Below are positions 34,523-44,560 of a stretch of 64,000 bases of DNA, piece by piece. The translations under genes were made by a program, and so were the position numbers. Within the stretch, counting starts at the first letter, position 1. The number at the start of each line of letters is the position of its first letter. This DNA comes from a virus (Duplodnaviria > Heunggongvirae > Uroviricota > Caudoviricetes): positions 1-64,000 of the IMG/VR virus record IMGVR_UViG_2974549561_000001; one strand, given 5' to 3'. Below the pieces are notes generated by a model that saw nothing but the letters and a program-made list of their open reading frames with translations, made no database searches and was not told the origin of the DNA.

Positions 34523-34589
34523 GCAACAAATGACCGGTTGAGAAGTTACTTTGCATACCATTACCTCCTGACAACGTAGGAGGGAACTT

Positions 34590-34919: not shown

Positions 34920-35359
34920 TTGGCTGGGGTGTATGCGTTCTTGCGTTAGCCTTAGCCGATCGCTATTTGCTAAAACGCAAGGACATCACGCATTTAGAAC
35001 TTGGTGATGTGGAAATTAAACCGGGTTTCATCCGGGTGCCGTTCAAATACCGGTCTAAATTCCCGTTTTTGCGCGGCGCAACGGTCAGATATTGGATCCG
35101 CGATGTTCAGAAGCCGACGACAGTGATTGAAGGCGAACAACGTTGTTTGACGTCGGCTGAACAGGGCGAAAACAGTGAATGGTTGTACATACCCACTGAA
35201 TATATGGGTAAAGGAGAGCGACTGTGGCATTTCAACGTCATGGTTACGCATGGCGACTCGTTCATTAACCCGTTGTATCGGATTTTCCCTGTTACTCAGC
35301 AAATCCGCAGAAGTTACGTAATAAATCTCGCACAGGATGTGTCAGATGACGAAAAATAA
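34916..35359 (+). CDS. lydB: LydB-like lysis regulator
   Basis: 147 aa, ATGA overlap with lydA. Confidence 0.5.
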   Translation: MIGWGVCVLALALADRYLLKRKDITHLELGDVEIKPGFIRVPFKYRSKFPFLRGATVRYWIRDVQKPTTVIEGEQRCLTSAEQGENSEWLYIPTEYMGKGERLWHFNVMVTHGDSFINPLYRIFPVTQQIRRSYVINLAQDVSDDEK

Positions 35360-35948
35360 GTATGCAACGGTCGATTTTGACCAGGTTAATGAAAAGGGGC
35401 TGAAATCCCTTATCGCGGCGATCAATAAAACCGGTGTTACGGTAATTGAGGTTGACTCCAGCAACCGCGCAACAACGAAAGATGGCGTTAAAGTTAAAAC
35501 CGCAAAGCTGGTTCTTAACGACGGACAAATTCTTGCCATACAGGTAAACGATACTGGCGATATATCGTCTGTGAGGCTGAATGGAAAAGCTATTCCTAAC
35601 GCTCAGTCGCCGGATATCAAGACGCTTGGTACCGTCATGGGGCAAGCGGCCCGCAAAAACTCCGCAAAATTCCAGAAATCACTGATCGCCAAAGCGAAGC
35701 GTGTTGCCAATCCGGTAGACAAGAAACCGGCAGTTAAATCCAACTTTCAGCGTCTGCAAGAAGCAAAACTGCGGAATGCTCAGGTGGTTGCCGCTTATAA
35801 GTCCGCGCAGAATTCGGTGTCTTTCAATCAACAGCAGATCACTGATTTGCGGGCGAAGCTGGATAAGGAGACAGGCCGACTCAATAACGAAAAGGCCCGA
35901 AATGGCGAACTCAAACGCCGTCTTAAGCAACTGAAAGCAGGAAATTAA
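35346..35948 (+). CDS. hdf: Hdf (DarA-fragment homologue)
   Basis: 200 aa; AKFQKSLIAKAKR block similar to DarA AKFQRAQKKKKAL. Confidence 0.55.
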   Translation: MTKNKYATVDFDQVNEKGLKSLIAAINKTGVTVIEVDSSNRATTKDGVKVKTAKLVLNDGQILAIQVNDTGDISSVRLNGKAIPNAQSPDIKTLGTVMGQAARKNSAKFQKSLIAKAKRVANPVDKKPAVKSNFQRLQEAKLRNAQVVAAYKSAQNSVSFNQQQITDLRAKLDKETGRLNNEKARNGELKRRLKQLKAGN

Positions 35949-38231: not shown

Positions 38232-39569
38232 CATCCTCCACGCCCTTCGGGGTGTGGATTCCTGCTATGTTCAGGCTGTCGCCTGAATCATTTCGGAGGG
38301 TTCCTGCTTCAACGGGCGGTCTGACTGCACCATCCCTCCACAGGCAAGCACGGCGTGCCCCGCCGCTAAAATGTTACGAGCGCCGTTTACATCGGCGTTC
38401 GCTGTATATCCACAATCCCGACACACGAATTTACTTTGTGACAGGCGGTTTTCTTTCGCTGTATGGCCACAGCACGCGCAACGCTGGCTTGTGTACGCTG
38501 GCGGCACTGCCAGTACCTGACCGCCACGCCAGAGCTGCTTGTACTCAAGCTGGCGGCGCATTTCATACCAGCCCTGATCCAGTATCGAACGGTTTAAACC
38601 TGATTTTGCCCGGACATTGCGCCCCGGCTGACTTATCGTACCCGCCGCTGACTTTGACATGTATTTAACCTTCAAATCCTCAATGACAATCATTGCGTGG
38701 TTTTTGCTGATGATCGTTGTGATTTTATGAAGGTAGTCTCTGCGGATGTTTGCGATACGAAAATGCAGTCGCTGTATTTTGCGTTTCTGCATCTGCCAGT
38801 TGTTGCTGAATCTGACCTTGCGGCTTAACTGTCGCTGAAGTCTCGCCAGCTTCTTCTGGTTTTTCTGAAAACTATTTACAGGTTCAAAGACTGTGCCATC
38901 TGACAGCGTGGCGAGTTTAGCCACGCCAGCATCCAGTCCGACCATTGATGCTGAAGGGTGAACAGGAGTGGATACCTCTCTTTCTGTCTGAATACTGATG
39001 TACCACTTACCGCAGGACTGGCTGACAGTGACATTTTTCACAACACCCGTGACCTGACGGCTATTCCGGTAGCGCATCCAGCCAAGTTTCGGCAGAAAAA
39101 TACGGCTGTATTCCTGATCGAGCTTAACGCCCTGCGGGTAGCGGAATGCATCATTCTGTCCCCGCTTTTTGAATCGGGGAAAAGCAGCCCGATTCTGGAA
39201 GAAGTTTTTGTAAGCCCGCTCAAGGTCTTTCAGTGACTGTTGCAATGGCTGTGAGGGAGAATCTTTAAGCCATTCGGTTTCAGTGTCTTTTTTCCACTCA
39301 ACCAACCAGGAAGCCATTTTCGTGTAAGGGATGTATTTTTTACCGGCCTCATGATTCTCATTCTGAAGCGCCAGAGCACGATTGAAAACGAAACGACATG
39401 CGCCTGCGAAGCGCCTCATTTCACGCTCCTGTTGACCATCTGGTCTTAATCGGAATTTGAATGACACCTGTTGTTTCATGTCACTATTTTAAGCAAAAAT
39501 AGCCGGGAGGAAAACTGTGCCTTATATCCCCACTATGAGGCGCGTGGGGAGCGGCACATTGGATAAGGC
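38232..39569 (-). mobile_element. IS200/IS605-family tnpB-only insertion element
   Basis: single TnpB ORF, no tnpA; subterminal hairpins at both ends; TTAC next to the left end (minus-strand reading); occupies the ddrA-ddrB junction. Confidence 0.7.
38271..39479 (-). CDS. tnpB: TnpB (OrfB) RNA-guided nuclease family
   Basis: 402 aa; N-terminal OrfB_IS605 region and C-terminal zinc finger CACCGH...CRDCG with RuvC-like segment. Confidence 0.85.
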
Positions 39570-39578
39570 GTAACAGGG

Positions 39579-42566
39579 ATGAGCTTAAGCGATCAGGTGG
39601 TTATGGCCACCAGCATAGAAACGCTGATCGAGCTGCTAAAGAACCTGCCCGATTACGGGCGGGTTTCGTATGTGGTGACAGCGAAGGGAGACGAGGTAAA
39701 AACGGCGTTTGATATCGTCGATGCCTCAGCTCTTTTGGTATCCAATACTCTGGATGGGAAAATTAATCCAGACTATCCCCAGGAACTTCAGCCGCGCGAC
39801 CGGACCCGCGCATCCAGCCTTCTTCAGGTCAACCAGATATCCAAGGATTTGCGTCCTGCCCAGCTTACCGATTCCGGTTTATCCAGCCATGGCGCGCCGA
39901 TAATTGGTGAGGACAATGCCGTTGAGTCAGGTAATGGGCGGACCATGGGGATCATCAAAGCCTATCAGGACGGCAATGCGGATCGGTATCGTGAGTACCT
40001 GATTGAACATGCGACCGAATTCGGCATACGACCTGAAAAGGTTGAATCAATGACGGCTCCGGTACTGGTGCGCCGCCGGTTAACTAAGGTTGACCGCGTT
40101 CAGTTTGCCAAGGACTCAAATATTTCTGATCTTCAGGAAATGGCAGCCAGTGAAAAGGCTTTTGTTGATGCCGACAGCATAACACCGGCGATGATGGCGC
40201 TTTTTAACCCGTCAGAAAGCGGAGATCTGCTTAGCCGCAGTAATGACGCGTTTATTCGCGGATTTATGACGCAAGTTGGTGCCACACAGGCGGCTGGCCT
40301 TGTAACTGAAGATGGGCGACCAACACGGCAACTTGTAGACCGTATACAAAACGCGATCTTTGCCAAGGCATATAAGGATGCGCGCCTGGTAAGAATGGTT
40401 GCAGAAGAACCTGATCCGGATATGCGTAATGTTCTGACGGCGCTTAATGCGGCAGCCAATGATTTTGTCCAGATGCAGGCTTTATCAGGAGAAGCGCACA
40501 AGCAGGCTGTGACAACTATTGTTGATGGTATTGAGACAGCGGATAGTCTCGATAAAAAGGCGCTGGCGGCATTGAAAGATGCGGTAGACCTGGTAAGGCA
40601 ATCGAAGGAGTCAGGCCAACATATTACCGATGTTATTGCTCAGGGGGATATGTTCAGCGAAACAGCCCCGGAAGTGAAAGCTCTCGCGTTGTTCATCGTC
40701 GCGAATAACCGTAGCGCGAAGCGTATGGCCACCGCCTTTAAATTGATGGCTCAACGTATCAATGATGAGTTACAGCACCAGGGCCAGGCGCTGGGGGATA
40801 TGTTTGGCGGTGGTGATGTGTCGTTACAGGATATCCTTCGCCAGGTGTCTCAGGAACTGGAAAACGAAGGCATGCAAGGGATATCCGGCGGTCTTTTCGA
40901 GTCCGTTTCCGGCGGTAGTTACAACGGTGTTGCTCCATATACCAGTTTGCTATTACATCGGGCATCCGGCATCAAAGACATTATTCATCTGATCAGGCTG
41001 CTTTCCCGTACAGATCCCCAGGATGAACAGCTTGTACAAGTGCTTGCGCATTTTGTTCGAATGCCTGTTGCCGACGTGAATAAATGGTGCCGATTATTCG
41101 GTATCAGCAATTCGTTACTTCGCGGATTGTTAAATCACGCATCCTCCCTTGGGCGCGACGGCTTTGATGAGATAGCGCAGGCGATAAAAAACGGAGATAT
41201 GCCACCAGCTATTGACTGGTTTTCCATTCGCCCAACCAGGGTGAAAGCATTCCTTAGCGCGGCGCATTCGGCATCACCATTGGCAGAAATGATTCAGAGG
41301 TTGTCGCTCATATTCACAGACCATACCGCGTTGGGTGATCTGACTCTGGACGAGATGAAAGAAGCCTCCATTCAGTGGGCCGATCAACAAAATGAGGTTA
41401 ACTCAGACTTCTTGCCAGCATTCAGGAAGGCCGTTAGTAAAGCGGATGATGCCCGTGGAATTCTGAAGGCATTTAAGGCATTGCAAAGTCGGGTTAATAA
41501 ACATGTCGGTGATATCGATGGGGTAACGGCGGAAGGCAGGGATATCCTTAAAGAGCACGGCATAACGCCAGAGTTTATTGATGAGATCAGGACGGATATG
41601 CAGCGTGAGGTCGTATCGTCCCTGCAAATCGTAGCCAGAGCGTTGGCGGATGCTAATCCGAAGAGTGCGGCCATTGTTAACCGGGTTATTGGTGATATTG
41701 AAGCATCGGAGGGCATGGGGGCGCTGAAACTCTTCCTTTCGCGAGCGTTTAATCCTAACGGCAATATTCTCCCTGGCATTATTGGTGAGGCTAAAAAGTA
41801 TGTCAGTGAAGAAGAACTTGAGCAGCTTGACCAACTACTTAAGCGATTCTCATATAACCCGCAGATACGCTGGCAAATGAATCAGCGAAGTATGGGTTCG
41901 GTCCACGAGAAAGTGTTATCTGCCATGAACAGTGCGATCGCAAACTCATCCGTATCTGAAGAAAAAGCTCTTGAGTGGGCCGACTCTTTTATCACAGAAG
42001 AAGTGGAAGAAGCCCGCGCTGGACAGAATGGTGGGATAGACCTGCGCAAGGAACTTGCTGATATTTATCGCCTGACCGGCGGGAAAATATCGACCTTATC
42101 AAAGGTAGTTCACCACCAGGGAAGGGCATATGCAAATCTTAATGGTGTTGTTGCTGTCAATTTGAACGATGAAAATGCAAGTGCACTGTGGCACGAGCTG
42201 GGTCATCATCTTGAGTACAGTAACCCTGGTTTGTTAGAGAAAGCCCGGTCATTCCTGAAGGCCAATGTTGAAGGGGATAAGCCATCTTTCGTCAATATCG
42301 GTGGGCGTGGCAAGCCTGAATGGTGCTTCAGATCTCGATTGAGTAATATTTATATGGCGAAGGTATACCCGCCAGCCTCAGTAAGTAACACCGGGAAAAT
42401 TCGGCAGAAATCACCGACTATTTCCAAAACGTCAGCAACGGAAGTATTCTCTATGGCTCTTCAGTTGTATCATGACAAAGAGGCCGCTGCCGCATCACTG
42501 ATGAATGGTGACGGATTGCTGGAACTGTTATTAGGTGTGGCAAAGGAGCTAAATAATGCAGATTAA
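39579..42566 (+). CDS. ddrB: DdrB
   Basis: 995 aa following ddrA; assignment by synteny and size. Confidence 0.6.
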   Translation: MSLSDQVVMATSIETLIELLKNLPDYGRVSYVVTAKGDEVKTAFDIVDASALLVSNTLDGKINPDYPQELQPRDRTRASSLLQVNQISKDLRPAQLTDSGLSSHGAPIIGEDNAVESGNGRTMGIIKAYQDGNADRYREYLIEHATEFGIRPEKVESMTAPVLVRRRLTKVDRVQFAKDSNISDLQEMAASEKAFVDADSITPAMMALFNPSESGDLLSRSNDAFIRGFMTQVGATQAAGLVTEDGRPTRQLVDRIQNAIFAKAYKDARLVRMVAEEPDPDMRNVLTALNAAANDFVQMQALSGEAHKQAVTTIVDGIETADSLDKKALAALKDAVDLVRQSKESGQHITDVIAQGDMFSETAPEVKALALFIVANNRSAKRMATAFKLMAQRINDELQHQGQALGDMFGGGDVSLQDILRQVSQELENEGMQGISGGLFESVSGGSYNGVAPYTSLLLHRASGIKDIIHLIRLLSRTDPQDEQLVQVLAHFVRMPVADVNKWCRLFGISNSLLRGLLNHASSLGRDGFDEIAQAIKNGDMPPAIDWFSIRPTRVKAFLSAAHSASPLAEMIQRLSLIFTDHTALGDLTLDEMKEASIQWADQQNEVNSDFLPAFRKAVSKADDARGILKAFKALQSRVNKHVGDIDGVTAEGRDILKEHGITPEFIDEIRTDMQREVVSSLQIVARALADANPKSAAIVNRVIGDIEASEGMGALKLFLSRAFNPNGNILPGIIGEAKKYVSEEELEQLDQLLKRFSYNPQIRWQMNQRSMGSVHEKVLSAMNSAIANSSVSEEKALEWADSFITEEVEEARAGQNGGIDLRKELADIYRLTGGKISTLSKVVHHQGRAYANLNGVVAVNLNDENASALWHELGHHLEYSNPGLLEKARSFLKANVEGDKPSFVNIGGRGKPEWCFRSRLSNIYMAKVYPPASVSNTGKIRQKSPTISKTSATEVFSMALQLYHDKEAAAASLMNGDGLLELLLGVAKELNNAD

Positions 42567-42867
42567 AATCGCAGCGCCATTAGGTGGAGATGCCATTATC
42601 GAATTTGATGATAATGAAGAAGTTTCCGGGCGTTTAAGCATTATCTCCGGTGACATTACCGAGGACATGATCGCTGAAGCCATAGCTGGGGCAAATCCCA
42701 ATAGCTATATGGGATTCGTTAACACCCTTGATGCTCCCGCAAGTGATGTTCTCCGAACGCTGCATCTTTACGCTGGCTGGTTTGTTGATTGGCCAGCAGT
42801 AGATGGTGGCGATGAGGACGACGACGACGATGATTTTGGTGATCATGTAGACCAGATCGTATATTGA
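42556..42867 (+). CDS. small acidic protein ending the Dar operon
   Basis: 103 aa, AAGGAG SD; very acidic C-terminus DGGDEDDDDDDFGDHVD. Confidence 0.5.
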   Translation: MQIKIAAPLGGDAIIEFDDNEEVSGRLSIISGDITEDMIAEAIAGANPNSYMGFVNTLDAPASDVLRTLHLYAGWFVDWPAVDGGDEDDDDDDFGDHVDQIVY

Positions 42868-42871
42868 AGAA

Positions 42872-42898
42872 ATCCCGCCAGTCGGCGGGATTTTTTTT
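42872..42898. terminator. bidirectional rho-independent terminator
   Basis: CCCGCC-agtc-GGCGGG hairpin with TTTTTTTT; also ends the convergent minus-strand gene. Confidence 0.7.
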
Positions 42899-43679
42899 AA
42901 TCGCTTTCCACTTCTTCCGTGGTGTTTTCTTGCAGTTCTGTTAATGCAGCACGACATAGGTTCCGGGCATTGGCTATAGCCACACTTTTGACTTCATCCG
43001 TCATCGTGCAGGTAATGTACTGATCGAGTTCTTCAGCGCGGATGATGCTTTTGCCAATCAGAAACTGTATTTGCCAGAGCAGATCGGCATCCATAATCAG
43101 AATTTCTGCCGGGCCTTCAGGGCCAGCCGGGAAGGAAACATAAGACTGTTTGCCCAGGCCGACAACTCGACAACTTGCTTCAAGAATTGCGCGCTTGAGG
43201 TCTGACTTTATAACGGAAACAGGTTGATTTTCACCAGTGATTACGCCGTTGACATGGAAAGGCATGTAGCTTGAAATACGCTCCACTTTCCACACGCCAG
43301 CAAGCGATCCTTCATGCAGCACAATGGGGGTAACCGCGAGTTTCATCTCACCATATAGCTGCTGGCAGATAGCTGGATTGCTGAATACATCTAAAGGCTC
43401 ACATTCAAACAGCGGCGCAATCTGCATGAGGTCCATCATGGTCATCCCTGGGGTACGAGCAGTAATGAATCTGCGCATACCAGTATCCATTGCGCTCCAG
43501 ATTGCTACACCATGCTTTTTGCTCACTTCTTCAGTAAAGCCAAGGTGGCACATGATGGTTTTTTCGATAGCCAGATCAGAGATCGAAACCTTTTCGCCAG
43601 GCACACCATCATTATTGATGGTCACTTCGACACTCTGACCATTACGCAGGCGGTATTGAATTGCTTTAGTATTTTCCAT
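42897..43679 (-). CDS. hypothetical protein (last gene of ssb operon)
   Basis: 260-aa ORF with GGAG SD; no family recognised. Confidence 0.5.
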   Translation of the reverse strand: MENTKAIQYRLRNGQSVEVTINNDGVPGEKVSISDLAIEKTIMCHLGFTEEVSKKHGVAIWSAMDTGMRRFITARTPGMTMMDLMQIAPLFECEPLDVFSNPAICQQLYGEMKLAVTPIVLHEGSLAGVWKVERISSYMPFHVNGVITGENQPVSVIKSDLKRAILEASCRVVGLGKQSYVSFPAGPEGPAEILIMDADLLWQIQFLIGKSIIRAEELDQYITCTMTDEVKSVAIANARNLCRAALTELQENTTEEVESD

Positions 43680-43685
43680 GTTAAA

Positions 43686-44363
43686 TCACTCCACTACAAA
43701 CCAGTCACATGCCAGTAAGTCGCCTACAGAAGGAACCCACGGAACAACTACACCTTGTGCATTTTTTAAGGCGAAATAAGCACCATACGGAACGAGGTCG
43801 CCGGGGAAATATCCCTTAATGGCTTCCATTCGTGCCGGGTACTGTCCTTCAGGAACCAGCCAGCAGAATTGGTTTTCGCCGTTCCACCCGCGTCGGGCAA
43901 CTTTCTTGCCATCCTTCAGCCACATCAGCGCGTCAGAAAAGTCGGCTGCTTCAAGGTCGATTTCTTCTTGTAGAGTAGCGATACCGCCAGCAGAAATAGT
44001 TACGTCCCTGGCTGTAATGAATGTCACCCCATTGTGACCTTCAATGCTGAGCGATACCCCATTTTCGAAGAAGTCGTTAGTCCGACTAAAGCCTTCTTCA
44101 AATGTTTTTTCTGGTGAATAGGACAGAGAACCGTCCTCATAAGCGACCAGATATCCGCCAATTTCTGGTCGGTGTTTTTGCAAAAATATTTTATCAACAT
44201 GGACTTTTACCCCTTCTGGCTCAACGACTTCGATGTTGCAAAAAAGGACCACATCCATTAGGGCGATAATTTCGATATCTTTGATTTTTGAGGCGCGAAC
44301 TGTTTTATGGCTTTTGTATTTTGGAAGTGCCGTAAAAAGCTCTTTCGTTGTCATGTTATTCAT
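43686..44363 (-). CDS. DUF2829 (Tad2-like) domain protein
   Basis: C-terminal ALMWLKDGKKVARRGWNGENQF...PWVPSVGDLLACDWFVVE matches DUF2829 pattern from memory; ATG 44363 after GAGGAA chosen over 44531. Confidence 0.55.
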   Translation of the reverse strand: MNNMTTKELFTALPKYKSHKTVRASKIKDIEIIALMDVVLFCNIEVVEPEGVKVHVDKIFLQKHRPEIGGYLVAYEDGSLSYSPEKTFEEGFSRTNDFFENGVSLSIEGHNGVTFITARDVTISAGGIATLQEEIDLEAADFSDALMWLKDGKKVARRGWNGENQFCWLVPEGQYPARMEAIKGYFPGDLVPYGAYFALKNAQGVVVPWVPSVGDLLACDWFVVE

Positions 44364-44560
44364 AGTCTTTCCTCTGCTTAAAACCTGATGTATTGCGCCT
44401 TCAGGTGGGTCAGGAATGTTTTCCCACCAGCGAACGCAATATCTCGGGGTGTTCTTTTCGTGAAAAGCGCGTGCCATTGCCAACTTTGGCGTTTGTTTGC
44501 GAGTTCGTGCTTTTGTCGGCGTCTGGACCATCGCTTTTCTTTCAGTCGTTTTTTACACAT

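Follow-up and report, generated by a model that had tools for sequence, protein, structure and literature searches.

Hxr, a late, highly acidic protein encoded at the end of the Dar operon, as a possible partner of the DdrB metallopeptidase module

The small, highly acidic open reading frame that follows ddrB in the window (the whole 64,000-nt stretch of Caudoviricetes DNA analysed here) is the phage P1 gene hxr (P1_gp021, YP_006490.1), which is already catalogued and is uncharacterised. Its product has, in our estimate, about an even chance of serving DdrB as a dedicated partner for its C-terminal zincin-like metallopeptidase (MPTase) module, acting as a latency inhibitor or as a chaperone. 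Most likely, Hxr neither regulates transcription nor serves primarily as a free DNA mimic directed against host restriction enzymes. The features of the gene and of its immediate surroundings are as follows:

34543..34561, + strand: late promoter LPdar (AAGTTACTTTGCATACCAT), whose -22/-10 sequence equals that of the annotated P1 LPdar
39579..42566, + strand: ddrB, encoding a 995-aa polyvalent virion protein 98.7% identical to P1 DdrB
42543..42548, + strand: Shine-Dalgarno sequence of hxr (AAGGAG), inside the conserved Lys-Glu-Leu codons of ddrB
42556..42867, + strand: hxr coding sequence, ATG start, 103 aa plus stop
42556..42566, + strand: 11-nt overlap between the start of hxr and the stop of ddrB (ddrB TAA at 42564-42566)
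42866..42898, no strand assigned: intrinsic-terminator hairpin, GAAGAAAUCCCGCC AGUC GGCGGGAUUUUUUUU, from RNA folding, with a T-run

The window protein is identical to the "putative repressor protein Hxr" of RCS47 and 98% identical to P1 Hxr (YP_006490.1). More generally, the Hxr proteins of P1, RCS47, P7, JL22 and phi456 share 98-100% identity with it, and their genes occupy the same place after ddrB with the same overlap. The PHROG 2292 profile, which describes a family of unknown function, matches Hxr over residues 1-103 (E 3.2e-60), and carriers of Hxr comprise 504 PLSDB plasmids and 18 phage records. Since homologues at down to ~30% identity all retain the frame, the length and the architecture, hxr is a real gene. 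According to a database record citing Piya 2017, it is non-essential for plaque formation.

An acidic 103-aa frame after ddrB, with a C-terminus of consecutive Asp and Glu residues, had been noticed in the preliminary description, and it is indeed present: Hxr contains 24 acidic residues (18 Asp, 6 Glu) for only 3 basic ones (1 Lys, 2 Arg), giving a net charge of -21 and a pI of about 4.05. The window contains 85 ORFs of 90 aa or more, and Hxr stands well apart from the others by its negative charge per residue (-0.204; the runner-up is at -0.115); its Asp/Glu run is also the longest (8 residues, versus 6 for the runner-up). Several weak matches were discarded when relatives were sought. The proteins P0022 (2602 aa), P0024 and P0026 each gave 4-9 matched stretches in an exhaustive HMMER search, but were taken as spurious because they are repetitive, adhesin-like or coiled-coil proteins in which weak per-repeat scores add up. 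The C-terminus of RapA (PDB, E 0.2), Pfam JetA (E 0.012, with 4 of 24 Hxr family members) and TIGR00718 all fell far below threshold.

The proposal that hxr ends the Dar operon is borne out by the LPdar transcript, the overlap with ddrB and the terminator hairpin. The operon is ordered lydA-lydB-hdf-darA-ddrA-(IS)-ddrB-hxr downstream of LPdar, and the LPdar pattern is matched four times in the window, versus 0.09 matches expected. No promoter of its own was found for hxr, with no match to the LPdar pattern near the gene and no internal promoter in the operon. In published RNA-seq data, the logFC of hxr is 4.98 at 10 min and has increased to 10.2 by 30 min, a profile that resembles those of the late genes ddrB, ddrA and darA and differs from those of early genes. 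The gene is thus under LPdar control and is co-expressed with darA, ddrA and ddrB.

The start of hxr overlaps the end of ddrB in 106 of 106 loci, by 11 nt in 101 of them and by 14 nt in the other 5, with a Shine-Dalgarno sequence placed within conserved codons of ddrB, while overlaps of 17, 4 and 1 nt are seen in more distant loci. The arrangement of AAGGAG within Lys-Glu-Leu (KEL) codons also recurs in a Citrobacter locus (L085, 43% identical). This overlap, together with a Shine-Dalgarno sequence lying within ddrB, suggests that hxr is translationally coupled to ddrB. At the other end, the hairpin at 42866-42898 has a predicted folding energy of -21 kcal/mol (z = -5.45), and no shuffled sequence folds equally well; it was missed by a consensus scan and revealed by direct folding. 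Because this strong hairpin with its T-run follows hxr, hxr is the last gene of the operon, and a hairpin of comparable kind follows the Hxr homologue of the Citrobacter locus. An isaA-like gene, convergent to hxr, stops at 42897. The downstream region is isaB-IS1-isaA in P1, whereas in the window it consists of the isaA-like gene and a Tad2-like gene; hxr adjoins a cargo hotspot, whose variable cargo begins beyond the hxr terminator and not ahead of it.

Structure prediction (AF2, with a 24-sequence alignment) divides Hxr into two parts, the second of which includes the longest acidic run:

42556..42801, + strand: globular core, aa 1-82, net charge -10 (AF2 prediction)
42802..42864, + strand: acidic tail, aa 83-103, net charge -11, predicted to be disordered (pLDDT 40-50)
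42811..42834, + strand: DEDDDDDD tract, codons 86-93, written GAT GAG (GAC)4 (GAT)2

The predicted fold is beta-beta-beta-alpha-alpha-beta followed by the disordered acidic tail, with a pLDDT of about 83 in the core and agreement between all five models. The family alignment shows P8, G53, V65-L66-R67, W75 and W79-P80 to be invariant in the core. The last 21 residues of the window protein are DGGDEDDDDDDFGDHVDQIVY. All 35 distinct family members have such a tail, 19-23 aa long and with a net charge of -7 to -13; its sequence is not conserved, and its tip is conserved as aliphatic-polar (IVY in the window; IVN, VVN or PIH elsewhere). About half of the charge of -21 thus lies in the tail. No fold match to the Hxr model was found among known chaperones, immunity proteins and protease inhibitors.

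The partner gene, ddrB, encodes a DdrB-ParB domain at the N-terminus of its product (aa 36-167; Pfam PF18763, E 1.9e-39). The reading of its C-terminus as a zincin-like metallopeptidase follows PMC5512222, peptidase activity being predicted only, and the corresponding features are:

41856..42563, + strand: C-terminal metallopeptidase module, about aa 760-995 (HExxH position, charge profile and motif conservation)
42192-42206, + strand: HELGH motif, aa 872-876, at the HExxH position
42441-42443, + strand: Glu955, in the conserved TEVFSMALQ helix (motif conservation)

As judged from the sequence, the catalytic motifs of this module are intact and conserved: the WHExGHHxExSNP and TE..SM.LQ motifs do not vary among divergent DdrB proteins or in a protein of Vibrio phage VAP7 that is described below. 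The charge profile additionally reveals a basic patch near the HExxH site (aa 901-950, net +9).

Several lines of evidence connect Hxr with this C-terminal part of DdrB. Loci retrieved via the DdrB C-terminus have an intact hxr in 80 cases out of 80. In the phage collection, DdrB is covered to 80% or more in 18 records, and precisely these 18 carry Hxr. Phage D6 retains lydA, lydB, hdf, darA, ddrA and the first 454 aa of DdrB, whereas the C-terminal half of DdrB and Hxr are both missing; because D6 keeps them without Hxr, the other Dar proteins and the ParB module do not need it. In two distant Dar operons (L271 and L273), the gene for a DdrB homologue, with ParB and MPTase parts, is followed by an overlapping gene for an acidic Hxr homologue of 100-103 aa (HMM E-values of 1e-4 and 1e-10), ending in EIN or IVN. 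Hxr and DdrB also diverge at similar rates, the Hxr core showing 42-51% identity where DdrB shows 47-61%. All sequence-proven Hxr homologues belong to Dar operons of a single phage lineage; the co-occurrence with DdrB could stem from shared descent, and the D6 pattern could stem from a single deletion. A small ORF located downstream of a larger gene is in itself unsurprising in a phage, given the tight packing of genes.

If Hxr is a partner of the MPTase module, the following sequence of events can be envisaged. The LPdar transcript would arise late in infection, as indicated by the promoter match and the published RNA-seq, and ribosomes ending ddrB would re-initiate 11 nt before the stop, such that Hxr would be made beside the new DdrB C-terminus and in step with it. 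The small core may then dock on the MPTase module, a step suggested by co-occurrence and co-divergence. More speculatively, the flexible Asp/Glu tail and its tip could mask a basic or zinc-containing surface of DdrB, candidate targets being the +9 patch of aa 901-950 by HExxH or the active-site cleft, and in the producer cell this might hold the peptidase in a latent state or preserve the competence of DdrB for assembly. Hxr would finally stay behind as DdrB, processed from 109 to 76 kDa, enters the procapsid, in line with its absence from the virion proteome. Such a mode would recall immunity proteins, secretion chaperones or a pro-peptide provided in trans.

The evidence from virions bears on this last step as well as on the alternatives. 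Six Dar proteins are packaged in P1 heads and enter the host together with the DNA, and Dar protection has been reported in cis only, on packaged DNA. The published P1 virion proteome (LC-MS/MS and its supplement) lists DdrB, DdrA, DarA, Hdf, DarB and Ulx, and Hxr is absent from it; this absence is weak evidence, as Hxr has a single convenient tryptic peptide and the study required two. Of note, the equally small DdrA and Ulx were detected in virions, with 2 and 3 peptides, respectively. The peptide of Hxr that is suited to targeted MS is IAAPLGGDAIIEFDDNEEVSGR.

The preliminary description attributed an antirestriction role to the acidic protein, by DNA mimicry. The first part of this claim stands in a modified form: a role in the antirestriction apparatus is likely because hxr belongs to the darA operon, is coupled to ddrB and is inherited with full-length ddrB. 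Mimicry of the Ocr/ArdA type, in contrast, is unsupported. Ocr (T7 gp0.3) and ArdA are, like Hxr, small, strongly acidic, encoded by mobile elements and found in an antirestriction context, and one could imagine Hxr as a packaged seventh Dar component that fills the groove of type I restriction enzymes as they do. Its net charge of -21, the retention of an acidic core and tail across the family, and a location in the Dar operon with late expression like that of the packaged Dar proteins would all fit, and a protein with one convenient tryptic peptide could have escaped detection. However, Ocr and ArdA act in trans and are produced early or upon entry, while Hxr is made late; because its RNA-seq profile is that of late genes, a mimic would help only if packaged, and Hxr was not detected in virions although small DdrA and Ulx were, nor is it part of the Dar system in the published accounts consulted, which describe six proteins. 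Structure prediction, one of the checks that had been suggested, gave no match to solved DNA mimics: Hxr shows neither sequence nor fold similarity to Ocr, ArdA or any other solved mimic, and about half of its charge is concentrated in a tail that is unconserved in sequence and predicted to be disordered rather than in a rigid phosphate-like array, the split being -10 in the core and -11 in the tail. In addition, its probable remote relative in VAP7 is basic, and mimicry leaves unexplained why Hxr tracks the DdrB C-terminal half. Hxr is therefore quite unlikely to be a packaged mimic.

Equally improbable in our view is that Hxr is a free, late cytoplasmic decoy acting on some factor of the host or the phage that has no relation to DdrB, carried as a passenger at the end of the operon, whether its tail imitates ssDNA or the acidic SSB tip, or whether it blocks a nuclease or a defence protein while replication and packaging proceed late in infection. 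Acidic, flexible C-terminal tails are also present in E. coli SSB and T7 gp2.5, and the Hxr tail with its conserved aliphatic tip recalls them; late expression, dispensability for plaques and the adjacent cargo hotspot are compatible with such a passenger. Nevertheless, the Hxr tip (IVY, IVN or PIH) is unlike the DDIPF tip encoded by the ssb gene of the window itself, the overlap with the ddrB stop is conserved down to ~30% identity, the variable cargo begins only after the hxr terminator, and an unrelated passenger would hardly be expected to co-occur one-to-one with full-length DdrB. As for the label "possible repressor; homolog of Xre", it goes back to a 2004 annotation based on a match of 28% identity to an Xre repressor, extending over about 58 residues, and has been copied into later records. 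A repressor function of this type is almost certainly wrong: 24 of 24 family members have no match to HTH_3 or any other HTH Pfam family at E <= 10, no NCBIfam match was obtained, and PDB profile searches returned no HTH protein at E <= 10. Moreover, Xre repressors have an all-alpha, five-helix fold, while the fold predicted for Hxr is rich in strands and has no helix-turn-helix, its two helices being separated by 17 residues; with a net charge of -21 and only 3 basic residues, Hxr is poorly suited to DNA binding, and its gene is a late one that closes a virion-protein operon. Xre/HTH_3 repressors and Hxr thus share only a historical annotation, and differ in fold, charge and timing. Neutralisation of the basic Hdf protein (net +21) by Hxr was also considered and ruled out, D6 keeping hdf without hxr.

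The partnership of Hxr with the MPTase module finds its closest parallels in other delivered effectors. Immunity proteins of polymorphic toxins and colicins, as well as class I type III secretion chaperones, are small, usually acidic and coupled to an effector. Hxr may be compared with them: its gene directly follows that of a delivered effector and is coupled to it, it appears to be gained or lost with the C-terminal module of that effector (as in 18 of 18 records, D6 and the distant Dar operons), and it would itself not be delivered. They differ in that Hxr has no homology or fold match to these proteins and that DdrB travels by the phage head and tail. Another parallel is offered by inhibitors of zinc metallopeptidases, such as the tail-inserting carboxypeptidase inhibitors and the "aspartate-switch" pro-peptides of astacins. 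Hxr has no structural or sequence relation to them; the likeness, to be taken as a lead only, lies in a flexible Asp-rich segment, a hydrophobic tip and a neighbouring gene for an HExxH...E peptidase.

Possible relatives of Hxr were also found outside Dar operons. A 1207-aa protein of Vibrio phage VAP7 (Ackermannviridae) shares with DdrB only the C-terminal MPTase module, with 24-26% identity reaching the last residue, and a 90-aa ORF lies 2 nt downstream of its gene. When viral structures are compared with the Hxr model, the BFVD model of this ORF has the top TM-score (0.40/0.44), with a Foldseek E of 2.3, and hhalign aligns the Hxr and VAP7-ORF families in one register (E 0.007-0.03, probability 1.5-5.5%). 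In an independent locus (L194), the same position is taken by an ORF homologous to that of VAP7 (blastp E 1.4e-5), whose product has a net charge of -17 and an acidic tail of its own. HMMER searches with the Hxr profile gave no link to the small ORFs of VAP7, L194, L195 or L197, and no small ORF is adjacent to the gene of the MPTase-ending protein of L196. Taken together, the small ORFs of VAP7 and L194 are probable remote relatives of Hxr, with weak statistics from hhalign, blastp and fold similarity, and VAP7 may retain a pair of the Hxr-DdrB type. The VAP7 small protein has a net charge of +4, so that acidity is not shared by all of these probable relatives at the corresponding genomic site. 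A broader proposal, which is rather unlikely, would make Hxr the prototype of a hitherto unrecognised family of trans-acting latency factors for zincin modules that end many injected polyvalent proteins, extending to the Ackermannviridae through VAP7. The core would then bind the peptidase and the Asp-rich tail with its tip would plug or cap the zinc site, as an aspartate switch acting in trans. The protease would thereby stay silent in the producer cell up to the entry of DdrB into the procapsid, with Hxr remaining outside.

P1 is a much-used tool in bacterial genetics, and its Dar system serves as the model for injected proteins that defeat restriction and BREX. Should Hxr prove to be the partner of the DdrB MPTase module, Dar would gain a seventh, non-virion component and the predicted autoprocessing of DdrB a testable handle. 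An effector-plus-antidote logic would then cover polyvalent phage proteins generally, which could be useful for engineering protein delivery by P1 heads. Independently of this, the "putative repressor, Xre homolog" label is unsupported and should be replaced in phage and plasmid records.

Among close relatives, polymorphism in hxr comprises 12 codons with synonymous changes only and 10 codons with amino-acid changes, numbers that say little about selection. The acidic run in the tail varies in length between these close relatives, the Asp tract of the window protein being longer than that of P1 Hxr by one residue, and the frame is always kept.

The 103-codon ORF with an ATG start at window positions 42556-42867 (+) is the named P1 gene hxr (P1_gp021, YP_006490.1), in a genome that is P1-like (Punavirus) and nearest to phage RCS47. 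The preliminary description of a 103-aa acidic protein with an Asp/Glu C-terminus, encoded after ddrB, was right in every detail, as was its placement of the gene in the Dar antirestriction operon. Hxr contains 18 Asp and 6 Glu versus 1 Lys and 2 Arg (net charge -21, pI ~4.05), and its C-terminal 21 residues are DGGDEDDDDDDFGDHVDQIVY. Among the 85 window ORFs of at least 90 aa, it is both the most acidic (-0.204 charge per residue, the next being -0.115) and the one with the longest Asp/Glu run (8). Since hxr is already catalogued, no new element is discovered; what is new here is the demonstration that its standing annotation is wrong, together with comparative evidence for Hxr as a cognate partner of the metallopeptidase module of DdrB, and possibly as the first of a wider family.

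The operon reads lydA-lydB-hdf-darA-ddrA-ddrB-hxr, and its relevant features are as follows:

34543-34561: recognisable P1 late promoter LPdar
38271-39479 (-): IS605-family TnpB/InsQ gene, 402 aa, antisense, between ddrA and ddrB
Gene upstream of hxr: ddrB (Pfam ddrB-ParB, E 1.9e-39)
42564-42566 (+): stop codon of the 995-codon ddrB, with the hxr ATG lying 11 nt inside ddrB
Directly 3' of the hxr stop codon: terminator hairpin, 14 bp, GC-rich, with a T-run (-21 kcal/mol, z = -5.45)

A Shine-Dalgarno sequence, AAGGAG, lies 7 nt upstream of the hxr ATG, and a promoter search found no further late or sigma-70-like promoter near the gene. In published P1vir RNA-seq data, the log fold change of hxr climbs from 4.98 (10 min) to 10.2 (30 min), a profile that matches those of ddrB (4.65 and 11.1), ddrA, darA and the capsid gene and is unlike that of early genes, for example ant1 (10.0 and 12.7); hxr is co-transcribed late with the operon. 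A CRISPRi survey scored it as non-essential. The tnpB insertion, also present in RCS47, widens the ddrA-ddrB gap to ~1.35 kb, versus 12 nt in P1, and a weak sigma-70-like site directed at ddrB is found at the end of this IS605-type element (39461-39490, +).

Neither the single protein nor family profiles gave a Pfam, NCBIfam or PDB sequence match, and Hxr falls in PHROG 2292, of "unknown function". Five concordant AlphaFold2 models, built from a 24-sequence alignment (mean pLDDT 70.7-74.8, core ~83) and identical in topology to an earlier 6-sequence model, predict strands at residues 2-6, 12-16, 28-32 and 76-78 and helices at 36-44 and 62-71, i.e., three strands, a helix, a second helix and a strand, with residues 83-103 disordered. 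As modelled, Hxr is a small folded core followed by a disordered acidic tail. The "Xre homolog" label is unsupported, since the protein has no helix-turn-helix and its fold class, charge and expression class are all wrong; the probability that it is an Xre-type repressor is negligible, this reading being refuted as far as computation allows.

The family is narrow. Only 18 matches came out of an exhaustive HMMER search covering 1.84 billion representatives, and a profile search of 5.8 billion clusters returned 32. Every one of the 32 is labelled "hypothetical protein", lies on a contig 80-96 kb long and comes from Escherichia, Citrobacter, Enterobacter, Klebsiella, Hafnia or Rosenbergiella; the gene is also carried by 504 PLSDB plasmids. 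Members diverge down to ~30% identity while keeping a length of 96-105 aa and the invariant residues P8, G53, V65-L66-R67, W75 and W79-P80 (motif VLRSLE..GW.V.WPEV). The core is acidic throughout (net -4 to -11); the tail, of 19-23 residues (net -7 to -13), is free in sequence and finishes in an aliphatic-polar tip (IVY, IVN, VVN or PIH). Close relatives show in-frame length differences in the Asp tract, as expected of a GAC/GAT repeat. On one metagenomic P1-like contig (L188, 6001-6555), the Hxr domain is duplicated in tandem in a 184-aa protein, P0015, with the long acidic tail on the second copy only and a 17-nt overlap between gene and ddrB.

Hxr is strictly co-inherited with the C-terminal module of DdrB. 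In 106 of 106 loci, a long ORF precedes hxr and its 3' end overlaps the hxr start (11 nt in 101 loci, 14 nt in 5). On every contig of sufficient length, this ORF is a DdrB of ~1000 aa. The hxr Shine-Dalgarno sequence is made of conserved codons for Lys-Glu-Leu close to the C-terminus of DdrB. In the reverse direction, 80 loci were retrieved with the DdrB C-terminal region and each has an intact hxr; in the phage collection, Hxr is present in 18 records, exactly those in which at least 80% of DdrB is covered. The two proteins diverge at similar rates (42-51% identity for Hxr, 47-61% for DdrB). By domain assignment (PMC5512222), a zincin-like metallopeptidase forms the end of the C-terminal half of DdrB, and its motifs WHExGHHxExSNP and TE..SM.LQ are intact and invariant. 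In one viral contig (L059, IMGVR_UViG_2645727673_000011), the ORF upstream of hxr has ~1340 codons and 46% global identity to DdrB, while Hxr is 99% identical; this DdrB may be chimeric or N-terminally replaced. In phage P7 (AF503408.1 / NC_050152.1, ~27.4-30.7 kb), the ddrB and hxr matches carry the labels 'prt' and 'odaA', which misfit the sequence, and the annotation table appears to be shifted.

Phage D6 retains lydA, lydB, hdf, darA and ddrA, together with a DdrB of 454 aa, which ends at the Gly/Ser-rich linker that follows its ParB-containing half. Both the C-terminal half of DdrB and Hxr are lost, with no Hxr-like ORF at the locus (E <= 0.7) or genome-wide (tblastn, E <= 1):

D6 locus L186, 5992-8416: DdrB region, in which two unrelated ORFs (185 aa and 110 aa) replace the DdrB C-terminal half and hxr

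The 110-aa ORF has a hydrophobic segment at its start. Because D6 lost Hxr and this half of DdrB together and kept the rest, Hxr is not needed by Hdf, DarA, DdrA or the ParB-containing half of DdrB, and it is the C-terminal half that Hxr tracks.

Viral contigs were then scanned with a peptidase-module alignment led by its most distant match. The pair is established in two further, more remote Dar operons, L271 and L273. Each has DarA_N/C and ddrB-ParB, and in each an acidic Hxr homologue of 100-103 aa (HMM E 1e-4 and 1e-10; net -14 and -10; ends EIN or IVN) overlaps the stop codon of ddrB by 1 or 4 nt. Outside Dar operons, a 1207-aa protein of the Vibrio phage VAP7 (Ackermannviridae), in which no Pfam domain is recognised, has only the C-terminal peptidase module in common with DdrB (24-26% identity, the alignment reaching the last residue), and a small gene follows:

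VAP7 locus L190, 3732-4004: 90-aa ORF, 2 nt after the stop of the 1207-aa gene, annotated "tetraspanin-15"

This name is almost certainly wrong for a small phage protein encoded after a gene ending in a DdrB-type metallopeptidase, and the protein may be a remote Hxr relative. Its BFVD model (A0A4Y5TVF7) has the top TM-score against the Hxr model among all viral structures (0.40/0.44), and in profile-profile comparisons the two families align over their whole length in a single register (E 0.033 and 0.007, with a probability of only 1.5-5.5%); HMMER alone gave no link between them. In another contig, L194, the VAP7 ORF has a homologue (blastp E 1.4e-5; net -17) that overlaps the stop of that contig's own peptidase-ending gene and has an acidic tail after the conserved "G-x-T-V-T-G" strand. 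Extension of the pair to VAP7 and L194 is probable. Coupled small ORFs with undetectable similarity are present in L195 and L197; in L196 there is none beside the peptidase-ending gene.

We give about an even chance to Hxr being a dedicated partner of the DdrB C-terminal module. It would be made in stoichiometric step with DdrB and bind the peptidase module, where its acidic tail could mask a basic or metal-containing surface; DdrB residues 901-950, right after the HExxH helix, have a net charge of +9. The likely purpose would be to hold the peptidase, or DdrB as a whole, latent or assembly-competent inside the producing cell. DdrB is reportedly cut from 109 to ~76 kDa before packaging, presumably by its C-terminal peptidase (PMC5512222). 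Hxr would stay outside the head: the published virion protein list includes all six recognised Dar proteins, down to the 17-kDa Ulx and the 13-kDa DdrA, and Hxr is absent from it. The specific form in which Hxr is a trans-acting latency factor for the peptidase is doubtful. The proposed logic would be analogous to that of toxin-immunity pairs, secretion chaperones and the pro-peptides of zinc proteases. Hxr lends itself to clear, cheap experiments in this classic model phage; only if the latency-factor model held would it bring a surprise of principle.

The preliminary description had taken the protein for an antirestriction DNA mimic; the Dar context stands, and the mimic mechanism is left without positive support. 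The structure prediction that it had suggested as a check was run and gave no fold similarity in favour of a mimic. A packaged DNA mimic would account for the charge of Hxr and the location of its gene, but is improbable: no fold similarity to solved DNA mimics was found, half of the charge sits in a disordered, unconserved tail, the probable VAP7 relative is basic, and the tie to the C-terminal half of DdrB would go unexplained. That Hxr went undetected in virions is a further but soft argument against it, because trypsin yields one peptide of 2.3 kDa and two above 4 kDa, one of these with 12 acidic residues, and the virion study required two. An unrelated late decoy, such as an SSB-tail or ssDNA mimic, likewise has a low probability, being hard to square with the conserved ddrB overlap and the one-to-one co-occurrence with DdrB.

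In the darA operon of the window, DarA (-33), DdrA (-12), DdrB (-24) and Hxr (-21) are all acidic, which is unexpected for proteins packed beside DNA; the sole strongly basic product is Hdf (35337-35948, +; net +21, pI 10.3).

Downstream of hxr, the segment between its terminator and ssb is a cargo hotspot with variable content among relatives (L002, L188, L189, L091; PMC5786510): IS1 with isaA/isaB in P1; ISSod13, IS26 and SHV-2 in RCS47; and an OmpD-type porin, an MqsA/RelE-like toxin-antitoxin pair or nothing in others. In the window, hxr is followed by:

42897-43679 (-): isaA-like gene, 260 aa, PHROG 2326, in convergent orientation to hxr, with which it shares the terminator hairpin
43686-44531 (-): Tad2-like ORF, 281 aa, Pfam PF11195 (E 2.6e-22) at aa 196-279 (C-terminal, Thoeris anti-defence)

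The stretch 42897-43679 lacks the IS1 and isaB of P1, and the 260-aa protein shows no similarity to P1 IsaB; it has the motif ENQPVSV.KSDLKRAILEA in common with P1 IsaA residues ~207-227. The first 56 residues of the Tad2-like ORF match the N-terminal leader of P1 IsaA and its PHROG match begins at residue 56, so that its real start is probably the internal Met. Relative to P1, a further gene, a candidate anti-Thoeris one, seems to have been inserted between the leader and the body of isaA.
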